53,428 nucleotides of DNA, from positions 1 through 53,428 of the forward strand of contig CAWUTX010000021.1 in NCBI GenBank assembly GCA_963925015.1, given 5' to 3'. Of this stretch, positions 8,056 to 47,034 are shown piece after piece. The position numbers and the translations under genes are program-made. Numbering within the stretch: the stretch's first letter is position 1; the number at the start of each line of letters is the position of its first letter. The DNA is from an uncultured Gammaproteobacteria bacterium. Lineage in GTDB: Bacteria; Pseudomonadota; Gammaproteobacteria; SURF-13. The notes under the pieces are model-generated. The model was given only the letters and a program-made list of their open reading frames with translations, was not told where the DNA came from and ran no database searches.

Positions 8056-8423
8056 TCCATCAGCAACTTCTTCACATTCTCCGCCGGACGGCACAACACC
8101 GCCTCATCGCCGCGCACGACAATCGGCCGTTGAATCAGGTCGGGATTTTCCACCATTATTTTTATTAACTCAGCCTCGGAGAGTTGCTGTTCCGCAAGCC
8201 CGAGGCTGTGCGCCAATGGCTCACCACTGCGCAGTATGTCGCGCGCCGTGAGGCCCAGCTTCACAAGCAATCTACCCAACTGATCTTCCGTCAAAGGCAC
8301 TTCGTAGTAATTAATAGCCTCAAACTCTTCCCCGCTCTCCTTGAGCAGTTCGAGTGTCGATTTGCAGGTGCCGCAGGTGGGCTTCTGGTAAACGGTTATT
8401 TTGTTGCTCATTTTGTTGATCAT
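8052..8423 (-). CDS. ArsC/Spx/YffB-family thioredoxin-fold protein
   Basis: The 123-aa ORF has ITVYQKPTCGTCK near the N-terminus and LIQRPIVV near the C-terminus, typical of the ArsC family. Its stop overlaps the msrA stop (CTAG). The start could be the second ATG at 8411. Confidence 0.7.
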   Translation of the reverse strand: MINKMSNKITVYQKPTCGTCKSTLELLKESGEEFEAINYYEVPLTEDQLGRLLVKLGLTARDILRSGEPLAHSLGLAEQQLSEAELIKIMVENPDLIQRPIVVRGDEAVLCRPAENVKKLLMD

Positions 8424-8430
8424 CTCGTGG

Positions 8431-8457
8431 AATCAATCGAGTCTGACCCTATTGATT
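8431..8457 (+). repeat. REP (RAYT-associated family), copy 1
   Basis: AATCAATCGAGTCTGACCCTATTGATT has a 7-bp AATCAAT/ATTGATT stem. The same unit flanks the RAYT gene at 38390 and 39164. Confidence 0.8.
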
Positions 8458-8525
8458 ATTCTAAATGGGGCGATTATTTGTGCCGCCTTCGATGCTTTGA
8501 AATCTACGCCCCTATAGTTCCACAG

Positions 8526-9221
8526 TCAAACCAGCGCTGGGTGTTCTGCGCCTACAATACTGCCATCCACCAGATGTATCTGGCGCTGGGTGTGTTCGGA
8601 GAGGTGGGGGTCGTGGGTGACGGTAATTACGGTCTGACGGTTGTCTGCTACCAGTCGCCTGAAAATCTCGAATACGATGTGGCTGTTTTTGGTGTCGAGG
8701 TTGCCGGTGGGTTCGTCGGCGAGGATGATGAGCGGATCGTTAGCGAGTGCGCGCGCGATGGCGACGCGCTGGCGTTGGCCGCCGGAGAGTTGGTCGGGTG
8801 TTTTCCTGGCTTCAGGGGTGAGTCCCAGTTCGTCGAGTATCTCTGCGGCGCGGGAGCGCATCTGGCTCACGCTACGTAGCCTAAGCTTGCGCATTGGGAG
8901 CATGACGTTTTCGAGCACGGAAAACTCCGGTAGCAGAAAGTGAAACTGAAATACGAAGCCGAGTTTTTTCAGGCGCAGTTCGGCAAGTTCGTTGCGGCTG
9001 AGTTTGGAGGTGTCGCGTCCTTCGAGGTAGACGGAGCCGCCGGTCGGCACGTCGAGCAGGCCGAGCAGGTAGAGCAGGGACGATTTGCCGGAGCCGGAGG
9101 GGCCGGTGATGGCGATGAATTCGCCGGGCTGTACGCTGAAATGGATGTCGCGCACCAGGGTCACCGGCACCGGGCCGGGCAACACGCGCATGACGCCGCG
9201 CGCCTCCAGCAGCGGCGTCAT
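8526..9221 (-). CDS. ABC transporter ATP-binding protein (LolD/MacB-type)
   Basis: Walker [10 protein letters not shown], signature [15 protein letters not shown], Walker [14 protein letters not shown]-loop TVTHD. The start is set at MTPLLEARG (ATGA overlap with the permease stop). The track's 20-aa N-extension was rejected. Confidence 0.9.
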
Positions 9222-13250: not shown

Positions 13251-16200
13251 ATGCGCTCAACCCGATACAGATTACATGCCCTGCTGCACCGGTTGATGGC
13301 GGCGAGCCATATCACGCTGCGCCATACATGGAAGATGGCCATCATCACCTCCGTCATCCTCGTCATCACGGCGGGGGCGCTGCTCGGCGTGGCGCGCCTG
13401 CTGTCTCCCATGGCGAGCCAGTTCCGCGGCGACATCGAGGTGTGGGCGAGCGCCGCCGCCGGTCAGCCGGTGAAGATCGGCGCTCTCAACGCCGATTGGT
13501 CCGGCTTGTTACCGCAGATCAGATTGACTGACGTGCGCGTGTATGACCCGCAGGGTGAGCGGGTTTTGCTGCGCTTCAGCGACATGCGCATGCGCGTTGA
13601 CCCGGTAGTGTATCTGCGCGACGGGCGCGTGGAGCCCAGCCATCTCTCGCTGGAAGGTGTGAGCCTGTCGCTGATCCGCACGCCGCAAGGCCATGTGGTG
13701 CTGGAAGGATTCGAGGACCGCACCCTGTCGGACGGTGCGTTCCTGCCATGGCTGCTGCGGCAGGGGCGGCTCGATATCCGGCAGAGCCAGATAGCCTGGA
13801 CCGACCGGGAGGCGGGCCGGGCGCGCCAGAGTTTCAGTGACGTGAATCTGCTGCTGCGTACGGACGGCAAACGTCATCAGTTGAACGGCACGCTGGCGCT
13901 GCCCGGCGCAATGCCTGCACGCGTCACGCTCGCGCTCGACTTCGGCGGCGATCTCAACGCCCCCGCCACCTGGGGTGGCAAGGTTTACCTGCAGGCCGAC
14001 GCGCTCGATCTGGCGGCGGTGCAGCGTGAGTTGCACTGGCCGGGTCGCGCGGCATTGCAGGGCGCGGCCGATTTCAAACTCTGGGGCCTCTGGAGCGGCA
14101 CGCGGCTGCAACGGCTGGAGGGCGAGGCCGCAGCGCGCGGCGTGCGGCTTGCGGCGTCAGGCCAGCCGCTGCTGCTGATCCGCCAGACAAGCGCGCAACT
14201 CCAGTGGCAGCGTGAGGACTCCGGCTGGCGCCTCTCCGCCGAGCGCTTTGTGCTGCAACGCGCAACGGCCTCGGTGCCGTCACGCTTTGTCGTCGTCTCC
14301 CATATAGAAAAAGATGTCCGCGTGCTGGACGCGCGCTTCAGTGAATGGCGCATGGAAGATGTCAGCGCACTGCTGCTGGTCGGCGCTGCGCTGGCGCCGG
14401 CCCTTACTGAACCGTTGCGCGGGCTGGAACCGCGCGGCGTGTTGCGTGACGTGCGCGTGCGCTTCACGCCTGGGCCTGCCACGGCGTCGGTCGCGGACAC
14501 CTTCAAGAATTTCTATCTGCGCGCCCGGGTGGATGGCTTGCACACACACGCCTACCGCTCCCTGCCGGCGCTCGATAACGTCAGCGGGGTGTTGCAGTGC
14601 GATGAGCGTTCCGGCGCCTTCGAGTTGAACACACGCAGCGCGCAACTCGCGGGACTGTTGCGCAAACCGCTCGCCATCGCTCAGGCCACGGGCCGGGTGG
14701 GCTGGCAGCGCGGCGAGCACGCGTGGCGCGTAGGGCTGGAGGCGCTCGATCTCAGGAATGACGACATCAGCGCACAGGTGGCCGGCACCATCGACTGGCC
14801 GCTCGACGGCGGTTCGCCGCTGGTCGATCTGCAATCGCGTTTTGAGATACCACGCATCGGCCGCGTGCCGGATTATCTGCCGGAGTCACTGTCGGAAAAG
14901 GCCCGCGCATGGATCACGCGCGCGCTCGTTACCGGGCGCGTCACCTCCGGCACGGCACTGGTGCGCGGACGGCTGAGTGATTTTCCGTTTGATGCCGGCA
15001 GCGGATTGTTCGAGGCGCGCCTGAATGTAAGCGACACCGTGCTGGATTACGAAGCGGGCTGGCCGTGGCTGGGCGAGATTGAAGGCGAAGTGGTGTTTCG
15101 CGGACGCGGCATGGAGATCAATGCCGTCGCGGGCAAGATTTTCGACTCCAGCGCGCAGAAGATCAGTGCCGTGATTCCCGACCTGTTGCTGGATGAGCCG
15201 CAGCTCACGATGCGAGGCGAGGTGCGCGGCGCGACCACCGATGTGCTGCGCCTGTTGCGCGAGAGCCCGCTGAAAGACACGTGGGCGAACTCCGTAGCGG
15301 GACTGAGCGCGGGCGGACAAGTCACGCTCAATCTGGATTTGCTGATTCCGCTCTCGGAACAGCCCAACCAGATCAAGGGCACGTTGCAGTTCAGGGACAG
15401 CGCGCTGCATTACGTGGACAAGGCGCAGGAGCGCGACATCGAGCTTACGCGCATCAACGGCGCACTCAATTTTACCGGCGACATGCACCTCACCGGCAAC
15501 GACATCGACGCCGTCCTGCTCGATCATAAGGTCAAGCTGGCGCTGAAGAACGAGACCCCGGAGGCGCCTGCGGGCCAGACCAGGCAGGCGCTGGTGATCG
15601 AGGCGCGCGGCAATACCGACCCCGCCGACCTGGCGCGCCAGTTGAAGCGCATTGCGCCTGATCTTCCGGCGGGCGCGCTTGATACCCTGCGCGGCAGCAC
15701 CGACTGGCTCGCCGTGCTGCGACTGCGTGCGGGTGCGGGCAGCGCGATTGAGGCCGACTGGCGGCTGGAATCGTCGTTGCAGGGCATGGCATTGCAGTGG
15801 CCGGAGCCCGTGGGCAAGACAGCGCCGGAGGCGGTGCGATTGGCTCTGGAGTCGGTGCCGGGCAGCGGACAAAACCGGCGCTTTCTGCTGCGCTACGGCA
15901 GCCGTCTGAACGGCGTGTTTGAACTCGCGCGCGCCAAAAATAGCTGGACACTGGCGCGCGGTGAGCTGCGCTTTGGCGTCACCGTTGCAACCTTGCCGCC
16001 GCAGGGCCTGCGCATCAGCGGCGAACTCGAGCATCTCCCGGTCACGGAGTGGCAGACGTTTCTCGCCCATGGCATCAGCGGCGGCGGCGGGTTGGCCGCC
16101 AGGCTTAATGCGGTTGATGTGCGCATCGGCGCGCTGGATGTATTCGGACAACGCTTCAGCAATACTCAAATCCGCGCCACCCAGACGCCGCAGGCGTGGG

Positions 16201-35311: not shown

Positions 35312-36202
35312 ATGACTTATCCCACCATAGAATCATTTATCGGCAACACACCGCTGGTGCGATTGCAGCGTCTGCCCGGCGACACCACCAACACTCTGCT
35401 GGTCAAGCTGGAAGGCAATAATCCTGCGGGTTCGGTGAAAGACCGCCCGGCCATGAGTATGATCAAACATGCCGAGGCGCGCGGCGAGATTAAGCCGGGC
35501 GACACCCTGATTGAGGCCACGAGCGGCAATACCGGCATTGCGCTGGCGATGGCGGCGGCGATACGCGGCTATCGCCTCACGCTTATCATGCCGGAGCACA
35601 TGAGCGCGGAACGGCGCAGCACGATGAAGGCCTTCGGCGCCGAGATCATTCTGGTGTCGCGCGCCGCGAGCATGGAAGGCGCGCGCGACCTCGCCCTGAA
35701 AATGCAGGCCGAGGGCAAGGGCCGCGTGCTCGACCAGTTCGCCAATCCTGACAACCCGCTCGCTCATTACGAAGGCACCGGGCCGGAAATCTGGCGCGAC
35801 ACGCAGGGCAAGACCACACATTTTGTCAGCGCCATGGGCACCACCGGCACTATCATGGGCACCTCACGCTTTCTGAAAGAAAAAAATCCCGCAGTGCAAA
35901 TTATCGGTGTGCAGCCGAGCGACGGTTCGCAAATCCCCGGCATCCGCCGCTGGTCCAGAGAATATCTGCCGAAGATTTATGACCCCGCGTGTGTGGATCA
36001 GGTCATGGAGGTGAGTCAGAGCGAGGCCGAGGCGATGACGCGCGAACTTGCCGCGCGCGAAGGCATATTCGCCGGCATATCTTCCGGCGGCAACGTGGCG
36101 GCGGCGTTGCATTTGTCGCGTGAAGTATCCAACGCCGTGATTGTCGCTATCGTCTGCGACCGTGGTGACCGCTATCTTTCCACCGGCGTGTTCCCCGAAT
36201 GA
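35312..36202 (+). CDS. cysM: cysteine synthase B
   Basis: Near-collinear with E. coli CysM from memory (IGNTPLV.LQR, LEGNNPAGSVKDR.A.SMI, EATSGNTGIALAM, QF.NPDNP.AHY..TGPEIW, GIRRW..EYLP.I, CDRGDRYLSTGVF). Confidence 0.95.
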   Translation: MTYPTIESFIGNTPLVRLQRLPGDTTNTLLVKLEGNNPAGSVKDRPAMSMIKHAEARGEIKPGDTLIEATSGNTGIALAMAAAIRGYRLTLIMPEHMSAERRSTMKAFGAEIILVSRAASMEGARDLALKMQAEGKGRVLDQFANPDNPLAHYEGTGPEIWRDTQGKTTHFVSAMGTTGTIMGTSRFLKEKNPAVQIIGVQPSDGSQIPGIRRWSREYLPKIYDPACVDQVMEVSQSEAEAMTRELAAREGIFAGISSGGNVAAALHLSREVSNAVIVAIVCDRGDRYLSTGVFPE

Positions 36203-36969
36203 ATATACTCGTATTTGACATCGAAACTGTGCCGGACGTGGAGAGCGGTCGGCGGCTGTACAAGCTTGACGGCCTCAAAGACAAGGAAGTCGCCGAGGTG
36301 ATGTTTCATGCGCGCCGCCAGGAAACCGGAGGCTCGGAGTTCCTGCGCCTGCACCTGCACCGCATCATTGCCATCTCTGCAGTGGTGCGCACGCGCGACA
36401 AGGTGAAGGTGTGGTCGCTGGGCGAAGTGGACGCGTCCGAAAAGGAACTGGTCACACGCTTTTTCGACGGCATCGAAAAATACACGCCGACACTGGTGTC
36501 GTGGAACGGCGGCGGGTTTGATCTGCCGGTGCTGCACTATCGCGCACTGCTGCACGGCGTGGCCGCGCCGAAGTACTGGGATACAGGCGAGGCGGACAGC
36601 TCCTTCAAATGGAACAACTACCTCAGCCGCTATCACTCGCGCCATACCGACCTCATGGATGTGATTTCCCTGTATCAGCCGCGCGCCACGGCGCCACTGG
36701 ACGAGATCGCCACGCTGCTCGGCTTCCCCGGCAAGATGAGCATGCACGGCAGCCAGGTGTGGGACAGTTACATGCGCGGCGAAATTGTGAACATCCGCAA
36801 CTACTGCGAAACGGACGTGCTCAATACCTATCTCGTATATATGCGCTTTGAATTGATTCGCGGCCACATGAGCCAAGAAGAATACGACCTGGAATGTCAA
36901 CGGTTGCGCGATGAGCTTGCCAGCACAGGCAAGCCGCATCTCGATGAGTTTCTCGCTGCCTGGCGCTAA
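36199..36969 (+). CDS. predicted 3'-5' exonuclease related to the PolB exonuclease domain (COG3298-like)
   Basis: VFDIETVPD (ExoI-like), NG..FD.PVL..R (ExoII-like), YCETDV.NTYL (ExoIII-like). ATGA overlap with the cysM stop. Confidence 0.75.
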   Translation: MNILVFDIETVPDVESGRRLYKLDGLKDKEVAEVMFHARRQETGGSEFLRLHLHRIIAISAVVRTRDKVKVWSLGEVDASEKELVTRFFDGIEKYTPTLVSWNGGGFDLPVLHYRALLHGVAAPKYWDTGEADSSFKWNNYLSRYHSRHTDLMDVISLYQPRATAPLDEIATLLGFPGKMSMHGSQVWDSYMRGEIVNIRNYCETDVLNTYLVYMRFELIRGHMSQEEYDLECQRLRDELASTGKPHLDEFLAAWR

Positions 36970-37027: not shown

Positions 37028-38377
37028 ATGCCCCGCCGTTCACGTAATTTAAAATCACTGCCGCAAGAGCCTGTGCCAGGGTACGTCGAGTCGCTCAACC
37101 ACGACGGGCGCGGTGTCGCGCATATGGGCGGCAAGGCCGTGTTCATTGAAGGCGCGCTGCCGGGCGAAGAGGTGTCGTTCACCTATGTCGCACAACACAA
37201 GCGCTACGATGAAGGAACCGTCGCGCAAATTCTCAAGCCGTCACCGCAACGTGTAACGCCGCGCTGCGTGCATTTCAACATTTGCGGCGGATGCAGCCTG
37301 CAACATATGGAGGCGGCCGCACAGATCGAGGCCAAGCAACAGGTCATGCTGGACAATCTCCGGCAGATCGGGAGAGTCGAGCCGGAGCAGGTATTGCCGC
37401 CGCTGAGAGGCCCGCACTGGGGCTACCGGCGCCGCGCGCGGCTGGGCGTCAAGTTCGTCATCAAGAAAGACAAGCTGCTGGTCGGCTTTCGCGAAAAGCG
37501 CAGTGCACTGCTGGCCGACATCAAGCGCTGCGAGGTATTGCACCCTTCAGTCGGAGAGCTGCTGCCAGAATTGCGCGCGCTGATCGCCGGGCTCGAAATC
37601 TATAACTGCATTCCGCAGATTGAAGTGGCTGTGGGGGATGAGGCGACGGCACTGGTATTTCGCAACCTGGCCGCGTTTAGCGGCTCCGATCTGGAAAAGA
37701 TGCAGCAGTTCGGAGAGGCGCACGGCTTACAGATATATCTGCAACCGGCGGGGCCGGAGAGCGTGACCTTGATCTGGCCGCAGGCCGCAGCCTTAAGTTA
37801 TCGGTTACCCGACTACGGACTCGAACTGTTTTTCTCACCGGCCGATTTTGTGCAGGTCAATGGCGAAATCAACCGCGCCATGATAGCGAGCGTCATCGGG
37901 CTGCTCGACCTTAAGCCGCAGGAACGTGTGCTCGATCTGTTCTGCGGGCTCGGCAATTTCACCTTGCCGTTGGCGCGCCATGCCGGGCATGTCACCGGAG
38001 TGGAGGGTGATGTGAAACTGGTGCAGCGTGCGCAAAGCAATGCCCGGCACAACGATATCCACAACGCGGAATTCTACGCTGCCGATCTCAGTCAGGATTT
38101 GTCCCAACAGCCGTGGGCCGAACAGCGCTTTGACAAGATTCTGCTCGACCCACCGCGCACCGGCGCGCTGGAGATCGTCAGACAACTGCAGGTGTTCAGT
38201 GCCTCAAGAATTGTGTACGTCTCATGCAATACAGCCACCCTGGCGCGCGATGCGCAGGAACTGGTGCAACGTGGCTACAAACTCGCTGCCGCAGGCGTGA
38301 TGGACATGTTTCCGCACACCACACATGTGGAATCCATCGCGTTGTTTGAGAAATACGAAAATAGTATCCATCACTAG
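37028..38377 (+). CDS. rlmD: 23S rRNA (uracil1939-C5)-methyltransferase
   Basis: TRAM N-domain, the 4Fe-4S Cys cluster C.....CGGC.LQH, F.P.DF.QVN, SAM motif LDLFCGLGNF.LPLA, LDPPR.G, VYVSCNP-like VYVSCNTATLARD. Confidence 0.93.
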   Translation: MPRRSRNLKSLPQEPVPGYVESLNHDGRGVAHMGGKAVFIEGALPGEEVSFTYVAQHKRYDEGTVAQILKPSPQRVTPRCVHFNICGGCSLQHMEAAAQIEAKQQVMLDNLRQIGRVEPEQVLPPLRGPHWGYRRRARLGVKFVIKKDKLLVGFREKRSALLADIKRCEVLHPSVGELLPELRALIAGLEIYNCIPQIEVAVGDEATALVFRNLAAFSGSDLEKMQQFGEAHGLQIYLQPAGPESVTLIWPQAAALSYRLPDYGLELFFSPADFVQVNGEINRAMIASVIGLLDLKPQERVLDLFCGLGNFTLPLARHAGHVTGVEGDVKLVQRAQSNARHNDIHNAEFYAADLSQDLSQQPWAEQRFDKILLDPPRTGALEIVRQLQVFSASRIVYVSCNTATLARDAQELVQRGYKLAAAGVMDMFPHTTHVESIALFEKYENSIHH

Positions 38378-38389
38378 CGTCCGGTTAGG

Positions 38390-38416
38390 AATCAATGGGG
38401 TCAGACTCGATTGATA
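38390..38416 (-). repeat. REP, copy 2 (inverted, upstream flank of RAYT)
   Basis: AATCAATGGGGTCAGACTCGATTGAT is the reverse complement of the unit at 39164-39190. Confidence 0.85.
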
Positions 38417-38468
38417 TTGGATTGAAAACGCAGTACAGTGCCTATTCCTATGAAGCTGGAGGCAGGCA

Positions 38469-39179
38469 ATCGCGCGCTTACCTAAATTTCTGATTCCAGG
38501 CCAACCGCAACATGTCATCCTGCGCGGCAACAACCGTACAGAAATCTTCTGTGCCGACGCAGACTACCGTTTCTATCTTGAAAAGTTACAGTTAGCCTGC
38601 GACTACCACGGCTGTGATGTTCATGCCTATGTACTGATAACCAACCACGTACATTTACTCATCACACCACACGAAGAACAAAGCCTTCTAAAAGCCATGC
38701 AAATGCTGGGGCGTTACTATGTGCAGTACTTCAACTACTGCTACCAGCGCACGGGCACCCTGTGGGAAGGCCGCTATAAAGCCACCCTGATTGATACCGA
38801 AGCCTACCTGTTGACGCGCATGCGCTACATAGAGTTAAATCCGGTACGGGCAGGCATGGTTTCACACCTGACTGAGTATCCTTGGTCAAGTTATCATCAC
38901 AATGCCTTTGGTCAGCCCAATGATTTGGTGACGTCGTATCTTGAATATCGCCGTTTGGGCAAGACCGACGCAGAGCGTCAGGCAGCCTACCGCCAGCTAT
39001 TCAGGCATCACATACCTGAAAAAAGTATCACTGAAATCAGGGAAGCGACTAATAAAGCCTGGGTGTTCGGCAATGATCGGTTCAAGCAACGCATTCAAAA
39101 GCGATTGGAGAGACGAGTTGAGCCGGGAGCCAAGGGTGGGGATAGAAAATCAGAACAATTCAGAATCAATCGAGTCTGA
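38469..39179 (+). CDS. REP-associated tyrosine transposase (RAYT, IS200/IS605-like HUH Y1 transposase); no canonical start codon
   Basis: Frame open from 38454. ARLPKFLIPGQPQHVILRGNNR, HUH motif in YVLITNHVHLLIT, TLWEGRYK, catalytic-Tyr region MRYIELNPVRAGMV, YPWSSY. Where relatives have MARLPR, this copy reads A-I(ATC)-A-R-L-P. The nearest upstream ATG (38450) is in another frame and stops after 11 codons. The first in-frame ATG (38697) would delete the HUH motif. Confidence 0.8.
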   Translation: MARLPKFLIPGQPQHVILRGNNRTEIFCADADYRFYLEKLQLACDYHGCDVHAYVLITNHVHLLITPHEEQSLLKAMQMLGRYYVQYFNYCYQRTGTLWEGRYKATLIDTEAYLLTRMRYIELNPVRAGMVSHLTEYPWSSYHHNAFGQPNDLVTSYLEYRRLGKTDAERQAAYRQLFRHHIPEKSITEIREATNKAWVFGNDRFKQRIQKRLERRVEPGAKGGDRKSEQFRINRV

Positions 39180-39190
39180 CCCCATTGATT
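39164..39190 (+). repeat. REP, copy 3 (downstream flank of RAYT, supplies its last codons and stop)
   Basis: AATCAATCGAGTCTGACCCCATTGATT. RAYT ends ...RINRV* inside it. Confidence 0.85.
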
Positions 39191-39250
39191 TACTGCCATC
39201 CCGCCATACGGTATCTGACCACTTGTGTGTGAGATTTGGCCCCGTGTGCG

Positions 39251-40468
39251 CTATAACCCCCTGCGCGATAGCGTCAGCGTGGCATTTGTGCCGCCAAAGC
39301 CGAAGCTGTTCGACATCGCGGTTTGAATATTCGCGTTGTCAATTCGCTGGCGAACGATAGGCAGACCCTCGGCGGCAGCATCCAACGTTTCGATATTGGC
39401 CGAAGCCGCAATGAAATTATTTTCCATCATCAGCAAGGTGTAGATAGCTTCATTCACGCCTGCCGCCCCCAACGCATGGCCAGAGAGTGACTTGGTCGAG
39501 GCAATGGCCGGCGCGCTGTTGCCAAACACCGCGCGAATCGCTTCCAGCTCCTTGACATCGCCGACCGGTGTGCTGGTGCCGTGGGTATTGATGTAATCCA
39601 CTTCTCCCTCAACTCCCTGCAATGCCATCAACATGCATCTGGCCGCGCCTTCACCACTCGGCGCGACCATGTCGTGGCCATCGGAAGTGGCGCCATAACC
39701 GACCACCTCGGCATAAATTTTTGCACCACGTTTTTTTGCGTGTTCGAGCTCCTCCAATACCAAAATTCCACCGCCGCCGGAGATGACGAAGCCATCACGA
39801 TCGGCATCATAAGTGCGCGAGGCCTTTTGTGGCATGTCGTTATATTTGCTTGAAAGCGCGCCCATGGCGTCGAACAAAAAGGCCATGGTCCAGTGCTCTT
39901 CTTCCGCACCACCGGCAAACACGATATCCTGCTTGCCCATCTGGATTTGTTCCACGCCATTACCGATACAGTGCGCGCTGGTGGCACAAGCTGAGCTAAT
40001 GCCGTAGTTGACACCCTTGATCTTCGCACCCGTGGCTAGGCAGGCTACCACGCCGCTCGACATGGTTTTCGTTACCATGTAAGGGCCAACGCGGCGAATG
40101 CCTTTCTCCGCCAGAATATTTGTGGCTTCCAGCATGCTTTCGGTAGATGTGCCGCCCGCGCCAACGATGAGTCCGGTACGGATATTGGATACCAGTTCCA
40201 GCGGCAAGTTGGCATCGGCTATCGCTTCCTGCATGGCGATCCAGGCGTAAGCATGGCCATTGGCCATAAAGCGCATTAACTTGCGGTCAATCAGCTCCGC
40301 GACATTCAAACGGATAGGCCCGCAAACATTGGAGCGCAAGCCATGATCGGCATATTCCTGACTGAATGCGATGCCGGAACGGCCTTCACGCAGGCTATCA
40401 AGAACTTCAGCTTTATTATTACCGAGGCTGGAGACTATCCCCATACCAGTAACAACGACATGGCGCAT
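39251..40468 (-). CDS. fabB: 3-oxoacyl-ACP synthase I
   Basis: Collinear with E. coli FabB from memory ([61 protein letters not shown], the HGTSTP.GD and [10 protein letters not shown] blocks). The start is taken at MRHVVVTG. Confidence 0.95.
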
Positions 40469-40494
40469 ATTCGTGCTCTCCAAAATTAGCTCTA

Positions 40495-41010
40495 CTAAAA
40501 ATTATCCGTGCGCGTGAACAAACCCACGCGCAAATCGCTGGCCACGTAGATTTCCCGGCCATCCAGCGCCATGCTCGCATCGGCAATGCCCATTACCAGC
40601 TTGCGCATAATGACGCGCTTAAGATCGATGGTGTAAGTGACCAGTTTACCTGTTGGCAACACTTGGCCACTAAATTTAACTTCGCCGACACCCAGCGCGC
40701 GGCCACGTCCCGGCCCTCCCATCCAGCCCAGGAAAAAACCCACCAGTTGCCACATCGCATCTAACCCGAGACAGCCGGGCATCACCGGGTCACCTACAAA
40801 GTGGCACCCAAAAAACCATAGATCGGGCCGCACGTCGAATTCAGCGACGATCTGGCCATTGCCATACTTCCCGCCATCCTCGGTAATCGAAATGATGCGG
40901 TCGAACATCAGCATCGGTGGCAATGGCAATTGCGCGTTGCCTATCCCAAATAATTCGCCCCGTCCGCAGGCAAGCAGCTCCTCGTAAGTAAAGCTATTAT
41001 TTTTTTGCAT
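40495..41010 (-). CDS. fabA: 3-hydroxydecanoyl-ACP dehydratase/isomerase
   Basis: [29 protein letters not shown]...GG.YG.G...[35 protein letters not shown]. Confidence 0.95.
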
Positions 41011-41078
41011 GTGTTTTGCGGTCAGCGCCGAATGAATAGGCTGCTATTTTCGCCGACCGACTTTGTGCAAGTCAATCG

Positions 41079-41104
41079 AATCAATGGGGTCAGACTCGAT
41101 TGAT
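41079..41104 (-). repeat. REP, copy 4 (inverted)
   Basis: AATCAATGGGGTCAGACTCGATTGAT, identical to copy 2. Confidence 0.85.
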
Positions 41105-41107
41105 ATT

Positions 41108-41244
41108 ATAAAGCCTGGGTGTTGGGCAATGATCGGTTCAAGCAACGCATTCAAAAGCGATTGGAGAGATGAGTTGAGCCGGGAGCCAGGGGCGGGGGGA
41201 TAGAAAATCAGAACAATTCAGAATCAATCGAGTCTGACCCCATT
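41108..41244 (+). pseudogene. internally deleted RAYT/REP unit: duplicate of the last ~110 bp of RAYT plus REP copy 5
   Basis: ATAAAGCCTGGGTGTT.GGCAATGATCGGTTCAAGCAACGCATTCAAAAGCGATTGGAGAGA...GAAAATCAGAACAATTCAGAATCAATCGAGTCTGACCCCATT matches 39052-39190 with only a few differences. Confidence 0.85.
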
Positions 41245-41625
41245 TACAACCAACCCATGCACGCGCTTAAATTCTTTGCTATTCGCTGTGACCACGCCAT
41301 AACCATAGGCAATAGCCGTCGCCGCAATAATTCGATCATGTGCCCCTACCGCCCCGCGCGGCAACTCAGCACACATTTGGGCATGAATTCGTGCCACATC
41401 AGCATCGAAGATCAGGGCAGGTAATATAGACAATATATATTCGACGAAGGCAGAGCGTTTTACACGCTGCGCTTTCGTCGTTGCCTTGTATACGCCTACC
41501 AGCAATTCGGATACCGTGATAACGCTGATATAAACCGCCTCATCCTGAGCCCAGGATTTGGAATTAAACGGCAACCCGCGCTGCTCTGAGTCAATGAGTA
41601 CACTCGTATCTAAAATTAATCCCAT
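41224..41625 (-). CDS. vapC: PIN-domain toxin VapC
   Basis: ILDTSVLI (first Asp), TVSEL (Glu), HDRIIAATA (Asp) PIN signature. It overlaps the upstream antitoxin by 10 nt. Confidence 0.85.
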   Translation of the reverse strand: MGLILDTSVLIDSEQRGLPFNSKSWAQDEAVYISVITVSELLVGVYKATTKAQRVKRSAFVEYILSILPALIFDADVARIHAQMCAELPRGAVGAHDRIIAATAIAYGYGVVTANSKEFKRVHGLVVNGVRLD

Positions 41626-41891
41626 ACGTTGGGAGGCATCACGGCATCACGTCTAACAGCGGCCAAATCCTGTTTAAAGGTGCCAGCATCATCGCCCAGT
41701 GACGGCATAGCCGCATAAAACGCCTCTAAGTCAGCAACCTTAAGTCTCGCTGCCGGCTGTGCCGGACACAAGCGCGCGACGACCTCCCGGCCACGCTTAA
41801 TATCAAACTGCGCTCCTTGGTAGCGCACCTGATTCAATAGCTCCGAGAAATTACGGGCGGCTTCGCCGGAGTTTATTTGTTTCGCCTTCAT
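41616..41891 (-). CDS. type II antitoxin (Phd/YefM-like N-terminus)
   Basis: The 91-aa ORF has an N-terminal ...EAARNFSELLNQV...G..F.I.RGREVVARL.P pattern typical of Phd/YefM-type antitoxins. AGGAG RBS at 8 nt. Confidence 0.75.
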   Translation of the reverse strand: MKAKQINSGEAARNFSELLNQVRYQGAQFDIKRGREVVARLCPAQPAARLKVADLEAFYAAMPSLGDDAGTFKQDLAAVRRDAVMPPNVWD

Positions 41892-42029: not shown

Positions 42030-42224
42030 TTATTGGCACCCTACGTTATGATAGATGTCGTGCAGGTGGTCTTTAACGGTCTGTTGCGAGATAAAAAGTC
42101 GTTCGGCGATCTGCTGGTTGGACAAACCCCGCAGGGTATGGACCACGATTTCCCGCTGTTTTGGAGTCAAACCTAAGGCGGCTAACTTCGAGCGTACTGG
42201 AACGGTATCTTCCAGCCCGTTCAA
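42030..42224 (-). pseudogene. LuxR/GerE-type HTH fragment (no receiver or ligand domain, C-terminal helix cut short)
   Basis: LTPKQREIVVHTLRGLSNQQIAERLFISQQTVKDHL..IY is a GerE HTH. Only 64 codons, with no ATG start. It abuts the solo IS3 inverted repeat. Confidence 0.7.
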
Positions 42225-42257: not shown

Positions 42258-42461
42258 GTGCCGACGGTACCCCAGGACCGGTTCTATTTACGGGTGTCAC
42301 CGGAGCAGATCAAGCAGTTTGACCTGATTGATCCGGGCGTGCGTGAAATCACCATCTCGCCAGATGGAGAGTTTATCCATGGTGTGGACTTTTTGTTGAG
42401 AAAAACCCCGGCTAGGCCAATGCCCGACCTTCCGCGCGAGGAACCTCATGAACAAAAATGA
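42258..42461 (+). CDS. hypothetical 67-aa protein (doubtful)
   Basis: GTG-start ORF beginning 2 nt after the IS remnant. No recognisable motif. It overlaps the next ORF by 14 nt. Confidence 0.25.
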   Translation: MPTVPQDRFYLRVSPEQIKQFDLIDPGVREITISPDGEFIHGVDFLLRKTPARPMPDLPREEPHEQK

Positions 42462-42870
42462 CTTCCAGCAAAACCGCCTGGCTCAAGCCGTTGCCTGCGT
42501 GCTTGCGATCGGCAGCATGGCCTGGGTCCACAACAGCGACGCGGCCACGGCAACGGTGCTTGAGTCGGTGTCAGTCATCGTTATAGGGCCAGAAGAAGTC
42601 GTGACTACTCCAGTCTTGGCAGGCACGGTTTTCACTATCAACAGTTTCACGGAAAGCCTGTCCACCAGTAACCCTTTGTTGCGTAGTGCACCGCCTCCGG
42701 CGGATGTTGTAAGTGGGACTAGCGGAGCCGGTGCGCCGCCTGCCGCTGACAGTGCGGCCGTCGTCGTGACGGTCAATGCCGACGGCTCCCTGAGCGTCAG
42801 CGGCGGCTCAAACTTGATGTTTGCCCTGGCGCAGCCGGCCGACTGCGCGGTGATCATTGAGTACAACTGA
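42448..42870 (+). CDS. hypothetical secreted protein (signal peptide, Ser/Thr/Val/Ala-rich)
   Basis: GAGGA RBS 5-6 nt before the ATG. Signal peptide ...VACVLAIGSMAWVHNSDA|ATA, then a 105-aa mature beta-rich sequence with a single Cys near the C-terminus. I recognise no family. A terminator-like hairpin lies downstream. Confidence 0.55.
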   Translation: MNKNDFQQNRLAQAVACVLAIGSMAWVHNSDAATATVLESVSVIVIGPEEVVTTPVLAGTVFTINSFTESLSTSNPLLRSAPPPADVVSGTSGAGAPPAADSAAVVVTVNADGSLSVSGGSNLMFALAQPADCAVIIEYN

Positions 42871-43140: not shown

Positions 43141-46100
43141 TCAATCAATCCACTTCCGGGCATTACGGAACATGCGCAGCCACGGCGCGTCATCGCTCCA
43201 ATCGGCAGGGTGCCAGGAATTGGATACGGTGCGGATCACTCGCTCCGGGTGCGGCATCATGACGGTGTAGCGTCCGTCGGGGGTGGTGAGGCCGGCGATG
43301 CCGAGCGGTGAGCCGTTGGGGTTGGTGGGATAGGCTTCGGTGGGATGGCCGTTGTTGTCCGCCCAGCGCAGCGCCACGATGCCCTGAGCCAAGGATTGCT
43401 CCGGGCTGGTGCCGGGACGGAACAGGGCGCGGCCTTCGCCGTGCGCCACCGCAATGGGCAGGCGCGAGCCGGCCATGTCGTGCAGGAACAACGACGGCGA
43501 GGCGGGAATTTCGACCAGAGAGAACCGCCCCTCGAATTGTTCTGATGTGTTGCGCATAAACTGTGGCCAGCGTTCCGCGCCCGGAATGAGTTCGTATAGG
43601 TTCGACATCATCTGGCAGCCGTTGCAGATGCCGAGGCCGAAGGTATCGGTGCGTGTGAAAAATGCACTGAACTCGTCACGTGCGCGCGCATTGAACAGAA
43701 TGGATTTGGCCCAGCCCTGTCCCGCGCCCAGCACATCGCCGTAGGAAAAGCCGCCGGGCGCGGCGAGACCCTGAAATTCAAGCAGCGAGACGCGGCCAGC
43801 GAGTATGTCGCTCATGTGTACGTCGATGGCGGAAAATCTGGCACGGTCGAAGGCCGCAGCGAGTTCGATGTGGCCGTTTACGCCCTGCTCGCGCAAGATG
43901 GCGATGCGCGGACGCAGGCCTTTTTTTAGGTACGGCGCGGCGATGTCATTGTTCGGATCGAAACTGAGTTGCGCGTTCAGGCCGGGATCGCGCGCATCGA
44001 GCAGGGCATCATATTCCTGCTGCGCGCAAACGGGGTTGTCGCGCAGTGTCTGCATCTGGTACGAGGTCTCTGACCAGGCGCGCTGAAGATTGATACGTGT
44101 GTCGCTGAGCAGTGTTTGTCCCCACTGTGTCACCACAATATCATCGGTGTCGTTAAGTGTGCCGATAGCATGTGTGTATGGTTCCAGACCGGCTGCTTGC
44201 AGTATTTTTAATACGGCGGTTCTGTCCGTGCGGCGTATCTGCACGACAGCACCCAGCTCCTCGCTGAACAGCGCGGCATGAATATCATTGCCGGGTTCAT
44301 CAAGTTTCAAGGTGAGGCCGGTGTGCGCGGCAAAGGCCATTTCGCATACAGTGGCAAACAGGCCGCCGTCTGAGCGGTCGTGATAAGCGAGAATGAAATT
44401 ATTTTCGTTGAGCGCTTGCAGTGCGGTGAACAGCGCCTTGAGCAGTGTCGGGTCGTCCACATCCGGCGCTTGTGTGCCGATTTCGTTATAGACCTGCGCG
44501 AGCACGGAACCGCCGAGGCGATTTTTATCCTGTCCCAGATCAATGAGCAGTAGCTCGGTGTCGCCCTGATCGACGCGTAATTGCGGTGTCAGTGTGCGGC
44601 GGCAGTCGTGTACGCGCGCAAAGGCGCTGACGATGAGCGACAGCGGCGCAGTTACCGATTTCTCCACACTATTTTCGCGCCACACGGTTTTCATGGAGAG
44701 CGAGTCTTTGCCCACCGGGATGGCGATGCCGAGCGCCGGGCATAGTTCCATGCCGACGGCGCGTACGGCGTCATACAGTGCTGCGTCTTCGCCGGGATGA
44801 CCTGCAGCGGCCATCCAGTTGGCGGAGAGTGTGATGTCGGAAAGTTGGGTGATGCGTGCTGCGGCGATATTGGTGATGGCTTCGCCCACCGCCATCCGCG
44901 CGGAGGCCGCCGGGTGGATGAGCGCGAGCGGCGCACGCTCGCCGAGGGCCATGGCCTCGCCGGTGTAGGTGTCAAAGCTCGTGGCGGTGACGGCAACGTC
45001 CGCCACCGCAGCCTGCCACGGGCCGACCATCTGGTCGCGCGTCACCAGCCCGCCGACGCTGCGGTCGCCGATGGTAATCAGAAAACCCTTGTTCGCCACA
45101 GCGGGGAAACGCAGCACGCGCAGTGCGGCCTCGTGCAGATTGATTTTGCTGCAATCAAATCCGGAAAGTAGCGGCGGCGCATGGCGCACGTCGCGCAGCA
45201 TTTTGGGCGGTTTGCCGAGCAGCATGTGGAGCGCGAGGTCGATAGGCGTGTTGTGAAACTGCGCATCTACCAGCGCGAGCTGTTCGTCCACAGTAGCCTC
45301 GCCTACCACGGCATAGGGGCAGCGTTCGCGCGCACACAGCGCGGCAAATTCATCGCGCCGCTCAGGTGCTACCGCCAGCACGTAACGCTCCTGCGCTTCG
45401 TTGCACCAGAGCTGCATGGGCGACATGCCGCTGTCGTCGCTCAGTATCTCGCGCAGTTCGATGCGCGCACCGCGCGCACTGCCGTGCACCAGTTCCGGCA
45501 GTGCGTTGGACAGGCCACCCGCGCCGACGTCGTGTAGCGAGAGGATAGGATTGGCATCGCCCAGTTGCCAGCACTGGTCGATCACTTCCTGGCAGCGGCG
45601 CTGCATCTCGGGATTGCCGCGCTGCACCGAGGCGAAATCGAGCGCCTGGTCGCCGCTGCCGCTGGTGATCGACGATGCCGCGCCGCCGCCCAGCCCGATC
45701 AGCATCGCCGGCCCGCCGAGCACGATGAGTAATGCGCGCGGCGGGATTTCATTTTTTTCGACATGCCCCGAGCGGATGTTGCCGACGCCACCCGCTAGCA
45801 TGATGGGTTTGTGGTAGCCGCGCCGGTCGATACCGTGTTCGGCTGGCACCTGTGCTTCAAAGGTACGGAAGTAACCGCAGAGGTTCGGGCGGCCGAATTC
45901 GTTGTTGAACGCCGCCGCGCCGAGCGGGCCTTCCAGCATGATGTCGAGGCTCGAGGCGGTGTGGCGCGGCTTGCCGAAGTCATGCTGTTCCCACGGTTGC
46001 ATCGCGCCGGGAATGCGTAAATGCGAAACGGAAAAGCCGCATAAACCCGCTTTGGGTTTGGCGCCACGGCCGGTGGCGCCTTCGTCGCGGATTTCGCCGC

Positions 46101-47034
46101 CGCTGCCGGTGGCCGCGCCCGGAAACGGCGAGATGGCGGTGGGATGATTGTGCGTCTCCACCTTCATCACGATATGCACGTCTTCGGGGTGATAGCGGTA
46201 TTCGCGCCCCGCTGCCGGGAAGAAGCGTCCGGCGCGCGCGCCTTGCATCACGGCGGCATTGTCCTTGTAGGCGGAGAGAATGCCGTGCGGATGTTGCCGG
46301 TGAGTGTTGCGGATCATGTCAAACAGCGACGCATCCTGGCGCACGCCGTCAATGATCCAGTCGGCATTGAATATCTTGTGGCGACAGTGCTCCGAGTTCA
46401 TCTGCGCGAACATCATGAGTTCGACATCGGTTGGGTTGCGTCCGAGCGCCATGAAGTTTTGCAGCAGGTAGTCGATTTCGTCCGCGGTGAGTGCGAGCCC
46501 CAGCGTCTGATCAGCCTTGACCAGTGCGGCCCGGCCGCCGCTCTGTACGTCGATAAAGACTAGCGGCGCGGGTTCTGCGTGCGCGAATAAATTTTCGGCC
46601 TCACGCGCATCGTCCAGCAACTGCTCGGTCATGCGGTCGTGAATGAGGGGTGTGATGTGCTCGCGCTCGGAGCCGGTAAGCGGCGCGCGGTTTGCTTTTG
46701 CGAGATAGTAAATTACGCCGCGCTCGATGCGCCGCACCTGATGGAGTCCGCAGATGTGCGCAATGTCGGTGGCCTTACTCGACCACGGCGAGCGGGTGCC
46801 TATGCGCGGCACGACCAGCAGCGGCTCACCAGCCAGTGCCTGAGTAGCGGAGCCGTAGCCCAGAATCTTTTCGAGTTGCGCGTGCTCTGCGTGGGTGAGC
46901 TCGTGCGCGAGATCAATGAAGTGGATGAAGCTGGCGCCGACGCTGTCGAGATCGGGCACGGCCACCCGCAGGGCAGAGCGCAACTTGTCCAGCCGGAAAC
47001 CGGACAGTGCTTGCGGCCCGTGCAGTGGGAGCAT
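43141..47034 (-). CDS. purL: phosphoribosylformylglycinamidine synthase (large single-chain form)
   Basis: 1297 aa. N-terminal PurS-like domain, AIR-synthase-like repeats ([25 protein letters not shown]), and a C-terminal glutaminase with GICNGCQM and HGEGR. Confidence 0.97.

Follow-up and report, generated by a model that had tools for sequence, protein, structure and literature searches.

Import of a fabA-fabB operon into the rlmD-purL gap of an uncultured gammaproteobacterium, between two copies of a transposase unit that most likely bracket it incidentally

In an uncultured Gammaproteobacteria bacterium of the SURF-13 lineage, the genes of unsaturated fatty acid synthesis, fabB and fabA, lie between two copies of a transposase unit, one full and one internally deleted, within the gap that separates the convergent core genes rlmD and purL. 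The DNA analyzed, here called the window, is the whole contig CAWUTX010000021.1 (53,428 nt) of assembly GCA_963925015.1, i.e., contig C21 of the metagenome-assembled genome (MAG) G000, which comprises 1.45 Mb in 117 contigs with 60% GC and 92% completeness. It was compared with the other members of a set of 20 family genomes, including the congeners G001, G002, G003, and G004 (genus g1) and G015 (genus g5), and with public assemblies of eight sequencing runs from five studies (Logan contigs), which cannot show rare events. Synteny, distribution in the family, phylogeny, composition, and near-identical donor loci strongly support the import of fabA-fabB. We favor, with a probability of about 0.7, a history in which a 1.8-kb foreign fabAB piece was joined illegitimately in a gap already holding the unit and its gutted copy, so that the bracket would be a by-product of the place of landing.

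The imported segment (39251–41056, minus strand, 1,806 bp), delimited by DNA identity to donor-type loci, the tree, and GC content, consists of fabB, fabA, and a leader of 46 nt. The fabB gene (39251–40468, minus strand, with 40483 as alternative upper coordinate; 405 amino acids from its ATG) matches the NCBIfam model NF005935 over its full length (697.5 bits, cut-off 630), and the same holds for fabA (40495–41010, minus strand) and TIGR01749 (308.9 bits, cut-off 238); the leader occupies 41011–41056 on the same strand. The order cysM-exo-rlmD to the left is kept in all relatives checked, and in G001, G003, and G004 of the same genus and in G011 and G007 of another one rlmD is followed after 0–2.25 kb by purL, with no fabAB between them. 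No FabB was found in the four congeners G001–G004, where the best FabB-like match, about 40% identical, is FabF. FabA scores above the model cut-off in 3 of the 20 family genomes; this count may be a slight undercount, since an N-terminal FabA fragment of 40 amino acids (59.8 bits) is present in a short open frame of a fourth one (G019, C122:6351–6470). The nearest relatives of the window FabB, obtained from a search of 5.8 billion proteins, are 86–98% identical to it, and only the more distant among them bear labels, being from MAGs named Thiobacillaceae, Methylophilaceae, and Betaproteobacteria. A maximum-likelihood tree places the window FabB within a clade of 29 sequences (support 100/99), and the other FabBs of the family, from G014 and G016, form a separate pair; the latter are 71% identical to the window protein, compared with 92–98% for the donor clade. 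Vertical inheritance combined with losses was rejected on the basis of this tree and of the flanking-gene identities given below.

The same picture was obtained with DNA. The segment 39251–41056 is 94.7, 95.8, and 93.7% identical to three short contigs (L082, L085, and L086, respectively), with the same two end points in all three, beyond which each contig continues into its own native flank. An asmA-like open reading frame (ORF) follows as the next gene downstream in the contigs that extend far enough, L082 and L083 (88% identical). Three long contigs (L058, L060, and L084), 81–82% identical to the segment, show a stable neighborhood fabA-fabB-(asmA)-mutY-pseudouridine synthase-lnt; the FabA and FabB proteins of L058 and L060 are 91–93% identical to those of the window, and the L084 FabB is 92% identical. 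Housekeeping proteins of L058 and L060 are only 29–79% identical to those of G000 (MutY 44%, Lnt 47%, GlyS 46%). A donor-type organism, 97% identical and with native flank, is also contained in run X12. The comparison places the source in an uncultured, distant betaproteobacterial lineage, the MAGs of the FabB clade being labeled Methylophilaceae, Thiobacillaceae, and Betaproteobacteria. The GC content of fabB and fabA (55.0 and 54.3%) equals that of the donor contigs (55.3%) and lies at the 3rd–5th percentile of 957 long ORFs of the genome (mean 61.1%, standard deviation 3.4); at third codon positions, it is 62.5 and 63.4%, respectively, versus 73.2% for genome ORFs. The lower GC content noticed in the original prediction is thus borne out, although the shift is moderate. 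Its proposal that the operon was imported also stands: it had named fabAB at the same site in relatives and a congruent tree as observations that would speak against it, and the opposite of both was found. The acquisition is a clear case of horizontal transfer, an event of a known kind.

The two copies of the unit lie at the positions and in the common orientation first described. The full unit (38389–39190, plus strand) is composed of a left repeat (38389–38424), a Y1-transposase frame (38469–39179, 236 codons), and a right repeat (39156–39190) overlapping the transposase stop codon. Left and right repeats are inverted, with 91% complementarity over 35 nt, and each of them is by itself an imperfect hairpin carrying GGGGTCAG. 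The translation matches Pfam PF01797 (Y1_Tnp; 48.1 bits, cut-off 23, E 1.5e-12) and contains the HUH motif (NHVHLL, with HVH present) and the tyrosine region YIxxNPV (YIELNPV). A unit with 94.3% DNA identity is found at the same place beside rlmD in the congener G002. The miniature unit (41078–41244, plus strand) had been described as a repetitive extragenic palindromic (REP) sequence fused to about 110 bp of the end of the gene of a REP-associated tyrosine transposase (RAYT) and a further REP; this is confirmed in the form of a left repeat (41078–41107), identical at 30 of 30 positions to 38389–38418, joined to 137 nt (41108–41244) that are 95.6% identical to 39052–39186, include a 49-nt exact run, and represent the last 128 nt of the transposase gene including the right repeat. 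The miniature thus equals the full unit with an internal deletion of 633 bp (38419–39051), and its two inverted repeats are 118 nt apart. Its nearest relative is the resident full unit (95.6%), followed by the unit of G002 (94.9%). With 137 nt at 95.6% identity and exact runs of 30 and 49 nt, a chance origin of the repeats was ruled out. Independent miniatures with internal deletions occur in G002 and G013.

The window transposase is probably translated very weakly, if at all, in this population. At the expected start (38469–38471) of the otherwise intact frame, the sequence reads ATC, no ATG, GTG, or TTG occurs before 38697, and a GGAGG is present 6 nt upstream; the orthologues in G002, G015, G012, and G009 begin with ATG (MARLPRF...). 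In the lake-water strain, 38471 is changed from C to G, giving ATG, and the source-like runs keep the C. The loss of the start codon, behind an intact GGAGG, is recent. If the enzyme is indeed silent, any ongoing role of the repeats is further weakened.

The exact ends of the foreign DNA bear on the origin of the bracket. On the left, it ends with the stop codon of fabB (joint 39250/39251), and a spacer of 60 nt (39191–39250) separates it from the right repeat of the full unit. No significant similarity of this spacer was found to rlmD genes, the remaining genome, or any of the loci fetched, and it is 23 nt shorter in the lake-water strain (gaps in X4/X5). On the right, the foreign DNA ends at joint 41056/41057, inside a scrap of rlmD; the left repeat of the miniature follows 21 nt further on. 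This scrap (41057–41076, plus strand, 20 nt, CCGACTTTGTGCAAGTCAAT) corresponds to rlmD nt 811–834; it was recognized by a match to the rlmD of G002 (22/23 identical, E 1.8e-6), and it also matches rlmD of five relatives. In runs X4, X5, X8, and X9, it is 57 nt long and extends to rlmD nt 867 before the repeat begins (41070 followed by 37856..37894, then GAATCAATGGGG), so the copy in the window underwent a further small deletion. Enzymes of the Y1/HUH transposase class cut at their own hairpins; since both joints are located elsewhere, they look like products of illegitimate recombination. The proposal that the REP/RAYT copies moved the operon is therefore not sustained: the donor loci lack the repeats (none was found in the donor-type contigs L058, L060, and L082–L086), the foreign DNA ends off the repeats, G002 has the unit beside rlmD and no fabAB, and truncated neighbors of full units are common. 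The 80 related loci compared (L087–L166, from named genomes and MAGs) include cases in which a truncated copy adjoins a full unit and there is no cargo (L093, L104, L131, and L139), and another case is provided by G012.

The arrangement itself is reproduced in other data. Over 38428–40896, the window is matched at 100% identity by a contig of another ENA assembly record; this contig thus links the full unit to fabB, and Logan contigs span fabB-fabA-scrap-miniature, linking fabA to the deletion joint of the miniature. The fabA leader was again found joined to the rlmD scrap in runs of lake-water (X4, X5), hot-spring (X8), and sediment (X9) origin; this joint is covered by four studies, and the deletion joint of the miniature is also present in the lake-water strain. 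Other assemblies end inside the 49-nt exact repeat, and the link between miniature and vapC was deduced by elimination. In the source-like marine runs X1–X3, whose contigs match the window, depth is 17.6 over rlmD and the unit, 16.1 over fabAB, and 12.6 over vapC-purL. An assembly chimera was rejected on account of the identical ENA contig, the spanning Logan contigs, and the flat depth. In JGI metagenome contigs, a 27-mer across the joint of leader and scrap gave no match, and a 20-mer gave three chance matches in unrelated low-GC contigs. An empty pre-insertion form was seen in none of the eight runs, the joints listed at the repeats being repeat doublets elsewhere or mapping ambiguities. 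As to the suggestion that the duplicates can drive excision or amplification of the operon, a direct repeat of 167 nt exists, and such events are possible in principle, but depth is flat, and neither repeat-bounded deletions nor circles nor excess depth were seen in the eight runs, a weak negative, as contigs cannot show rare forms.

The gap between rlmD (37028–38377, plus strand, NCBIfam RlmD 613 bits) and purL (43141–47034, minus strand, 2079 bits) accepts different cargo in every relative and is thus an integration hot spot. It contains a 204-amino acid orphan ORF in G004 (L050 4389–5290), a 257-amino acid orphan ORF in G001, two ORFs in G003, an antitoxin/toxin pair (RHH/ParE-like) in G011, hicAB and a transposase unit in G015 (L073 6356–8345), and nothing in G007; further gap stretches of relatives are L051 5260–6633, L052 4877–7128, and L053 4873–5543. 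These contents are unrelated to each other, with 45–54% GC; the gap measures 0–4.8 kb, and no integrase or tRNA is present. The borders are mosaic, in rlmD over 37640–38377. According to sliding-window identity, the resident rlmD is nearest to G004 (92–97%) up to about 37900, a position just past rlmD nt 867, and beyond it is 85–86% identical to G004 and 92% to G002/G001. The purL gene is mosaic throughout among the congeners, with no clear recombination break to match that of rlmD, so nothing specific can be learned from it. In G004, the first ~800 nt of purL (L050 ~8400–9190) are a recombinant stretch, 73–76% identical to the window versus 90–96% elsewhere.

The unit has its own history in the family. 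Synonymous divergence (dS) of the transposase between G000 and genus g5 is 0.27–0.35, whereas rlmD and exo reach about 1.3; between G000 and G002, it is 0.165, compared with 0.38 for rlmD and 0.70 for exo. Over all comparisons (L049, L073, L074, and L075 versus 38469–39179), the values are 0.17–0.52 where those of rlmD and exo are 0.4–1.3. The unit is thus younger than the genera that carry it and has been exchanged horizontally between them. In four of the five family genomes that possess it, it is located at rlmD. An rlmD fragment starting at nt ~864 (L073 9149–9388) adjoins the right repeat in G015, with a full rlmD 2 kb upstream, and in the g1 strains of X4, X5, X8, and X9 the left repeat abuts the rlmD scrap ending at nt 867, with an intact rlmD upstream; each scrap is of the rlmD type of its own genus. 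The two junctions suggest a preferred insertion site at which some process keeps an intact copy of the gene. Recombination through rlmD or unit homology could be this process, and it could then also account for the direct repeat that encloses fabAB. From the junctions at nt 867 and 864 with scraps of the own genus, the 4–5-fold lower dS of the unit relative to core genes, and the four of five units at rlmD, a wider, rather doubtful proposal can be derived: the unit would be a mobile module that repeatedly targets rlmD nt ~864–867, with an intact rlmD kept or restored beside it, and that seeds a cargo-accepting rlmD-purL islet, where unit copies and rlmD scraps serve as portable homology for cargo such as fabAB and toxin-antitoxin genes among relatives.

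In the history that we favor, the fabAB piece (39251–41056) came from a betaproteobacterial lineage with a stable fabA-fabB-asmA-mutY neighborhood, as shown by the donor-type contigs, and landed between the convergent core genes rlmD and purL, where cargo varies among relatives. Before its arrival, the gap probably held a Y1 unit flanked by hairpin-forming terminal inverted repeats (TIR) next to rlmD, as in G002, and probably also a gutted copy of the unit attached to the scrap of a duplicated rlmD. The joining would have been illegitimate, non-homologous recombination, to judge from the joints, and the ends, 60 nt from the repeat of the full unit and inside the scrap 21 nt from the miniature, make the bracket a probable by-product of the landing place and not the mover. 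Several observations weigh against this history. The pre-insertion gap, with full unit, spacer, scrap, and miniature and no fabAB, was found in no genome or run, so that we infer the order of events. The copies of the unit differ by 4.4%, close to the distance of fabAB from its closest donor-type relative (4.2%), and a duplication at the time of import is thus compatible with the divergence. The 60-nt spacer has no match, and the promoter proposed below for the joint is a weak consensus match. The rlmD scrap and the mosaic 3' half of rlmD would also fit a circle that integrated by homology in rlmD or in the unit, a route that would itself create the direct repeat. In such a Campbell-type event, a circle with a 3' piece of rlmD, a full unit, and fabAB, assembled earlier in a close relative, would have entered by a single crossover with the resident rlmD (already interrupted by a unit at nt ~867) or with the resident unit, and the repeats would have helped the operon in by homologous recombination, not by transposition. 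This is possible but on the unlikely side. A single crossover would leave just such direct unit repeats along with a duplicated, equally oriented piece of rlmD; the shift of the nearest rlmD relative from G004 to G002/G001 falls at ~37900, just past nt 867, and the decrease of dS between G000 and G002 from exo (0.70) through rlmD (0.38) to the unit (0.165) fits a co-transfer of the 3' end of rlmD with the unit. The order in G015, full rlmD-cargo-unit-rlmD' (from nt 864), would be the mirror product. However, the scheme requires extra steps, with a prior illegitimate capture of fabAB beside the unit in some relative, and neither such a relative nor such a circle was seen; recombination mosaics, moreover, are common here anyway, purL included, and the usable homology at rlmD nt 811–867 is only 57 nt.

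The layout that drew attention to this locus in the first place, a likeness to a composite transposon, is most likely incidental. Composite transposons have the structure insertion sequence (IS)-cargo-IS, as in Tn10 and Tn9. The window shares with them two directly oriented unit copies around a metabolic operon, and a movement of fabAB as a module, in which the Y1 transposase would cut at the outer hairpins of the two copies, could draw on the exchange of the unit family between genera (dS 0.27–0.35 versus 1.3 for core genes) and on the gutted copies that the unit leaves at other loci. This mode of entry is nevertheless very improbable. Between the foreign DNA and the inner ends of the elements lie the 60-nt spacer on one side and the 20-nt scrap (57 nt in other strains) on the other; one of the copies is gutted; the rlmD-purL gap is the only place where the module was seen, and it was found neither at a further site in a genome nor flanked by the units in donors, the closest fabAB relatives lying in native contexts without repeats. 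In G002 the full unit adjoins rlmD with no fabAB, the transposase start codon is lost in the population of the window, and neither joints of circles or deletions nor raised depth were seen. The hairpin-acting single-strand enzymes to which this transposase belongs are not known to move composites, and composite-type cargo capture is not known for RAYT/IS200-type enzymes. The locus also calls for caution: direct repeats of a unit around useful genes mimic a composite transposon, and they can arise by landing in a repeat-rich hot spot. Hardly credible is the idea that fabAB is ancestral, was repeatedly lost, and was kept here by chance, or that the segment is a binning or assembly chimera. It could be based on the presence of fabAB in two other family genomes (G014 and G016) and on the fragmented MAG with repeats of 30 and 49 nt flanking the segment. 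But the window FabB is far closer to the donor clade (92–98%) than to the family FabBs (71%), and the ancestral adjacency of rlmD and purL holds across two genera; as to a chimera, the contig is 53 kb long and has syntenic core genes to the left and right of the segment, unique linkers join the segment to the repeats, the joints are reproduced by the ENA record and by runs of four studies, and the depth of the segment equals that of the flanks.

Among described elements, the TIRtron/TIRYT type consists of a RAYT-like gene with terminal inverted repeats on either side, placed at a fixed distance, and one group of these elements shares GGGGWSAS (Di Nocera et al., 2013, PMC3733652). The unit of the window fits this type, as GGGGTCAG, present in both repeats, fits GGGGWSAS (PMC3733652). 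With TIRtrons and REPtron/RAYT elements in general (PMC3733652; Bertels et al., 2017, PMC5581495), it shares the single Y1_Tnp gene with HUH and YIxxNPV, the self-pairing inverted repeats of 26–35 nt at fixed distances, one ~50–80 nt ahead of the start and the other overlapping the stop, and the occurrence of gutted copies without the gene. A 26-nt repeat (AATCAATGGGGTCAGACTCGATTGAT, 0–2 mismatches) flanks transposase homologues in most of the 80 related loci, beginning ~80 nt upstream of the start codon and overlapping the stop; it is conserved across orders, occurring in Gallionellaceae, Nitrosospira, Sulfuricella, Thiobacillus, Methylococcaceae, Crenothrix, Sedimenticola, Natronospirales, and others. 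The unit differs from REPtron/RAYT elements in that its transposase stays under the NCBIfam cut-off of the REP-associated tyrosine transposase model NF047646 (71.8 versus 80 bits, covering residues 19–145 of 241 only) and is longer (236 versus the canonical 146 amino acids). No large population of REPs or REPINs is apparent, with about nine repeat copies found in the 1.45-Mb MAG, but a fragmented MAG under-counts repeats. RAYT groups are reported to be mostly inherited vertically, whereas this unit was exchanged horizontally and is found at rlmD in four of five family carriers. A TIRYT-type unit that moved between genera and recurs at one position of rlmD may matter for the view of such transposases as “domesticated.” A REPIN is a pair of inverted REPs around a short spacer that a RAYT mobilizes in trans (Bertels and Rainey, 2011, PMC3116915). 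The miniature resembles a REPIN in having two inverted repeats 118 nt apart; however, it is single-copy in G000 and gives no sign of ever having transposed. Unlike a REPIN, it is a deletion derivative, as its spacer is the 3' end of the transposase gene. In the units of G002, G012, and G015, stuttered partial copies of the repeat were observed at both ends, e.g., GAGTCTGACCCCATTGATTC twice, followed by ATTGATT fragments (L049 ~13600–13670 and ~14477–14496; L075 ~2903–2967; L073 ~8320–8345), which repeated cutting or slippage may have left behind. As for the gap, Oliveira and co-workers reportedly described in 2017 integration hot spots between conserved core genes that are filled by recombination in the flanks. 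The rlmD-purL gap resembles these in its convergent core-gene frame, variable content (toxin-antitoxin genes, orphan ORFs, units, fabAB), and mosaic flanks, and it differs in its small size (0–4.8 kb) and in having no integrase or tRNA.

FabA and FabB constitute the anaerobic unsaturated fatty acid pathway of Escherichia coli and other Proteobacteria. The genes of the window are of this type, as indicated by the full-length equivalog matches, and are adjacent in the fabA-fabB order of the donors; they differ in being an accessory gain in a lineage with a conserved membrane desaturase route. A membrane desaturase of ~400 amino acids is conserved in 12 of 13 family genomes searched, G000 included, and the family's own route to unsaturated fatty acids would thus be an oxygen-dependent desaturase, to judge from gene content. 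The import would therefore have added an oxygen-independent route and would not have filled a gap. Besides the ~400-amino acid desaturase, G000 contains a second FA_desaturase gene (373-amino acid frame) that is absent in the congeners (the loci concerned are C26:1873–2481 and C16:10427–11119); together with FabA/FabB, this makes three routes or enzymes touching unsaturated lipids in this genome. The locus is a sharply delimited case in which a core lipid pathway was added horizontally to a streamlined uncultured lineage of ~1.5 Mb, with donor-type sequence within 4–6% and joints resolved to the base. This indicates that oxygen-independent FabA/FabB can be an accessory trait, and it may allow the formation of unsaturated lipids at low oxygen in a desaturase-dependent organism. 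Expression of the operon can be considered from its surroundings. A sigma-70-like match on the minus strand (41046–41075) spans the joint of foreign and native DNA, with the -35 element TTGACT in the scrap and the -10 element GAAAAT in the donor leader; it is weak (9 of 12 consensus positions), and seven sites were found where 4.2 were expected. The insertion may have created a promoter at this joint. As vapBC is located upstream on the same strand and the operon brought only a 46-nt leader, transcription probably starts from the junction promoter or results from read-through of vapBC.

The gene cysM (35312–36202, plus strand) and the PolB-exonuclease-like gene exo (36199–36969, plus strand) precede rlmD in the window. 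Between the miniature and purL, four further features absent at this locus in relatives were found, namely vapC with a PIN domain (41224–41625, minus strand), a putative antitoxin (41616–41891, minus strand), a LuxR/GerE helix-turn-helix stump (42030–42224, minus strand), and an orphan ORF of 140 amino acids (42448–42870, plus strand). The GC content of vapC and the putative antitoxin is 49–54%. The right repeat of the miniature contains the final seven codons and the stop codon of vapC (41224–41244), and the native 3' end of vapC was thus replaced when the repeat arrived.

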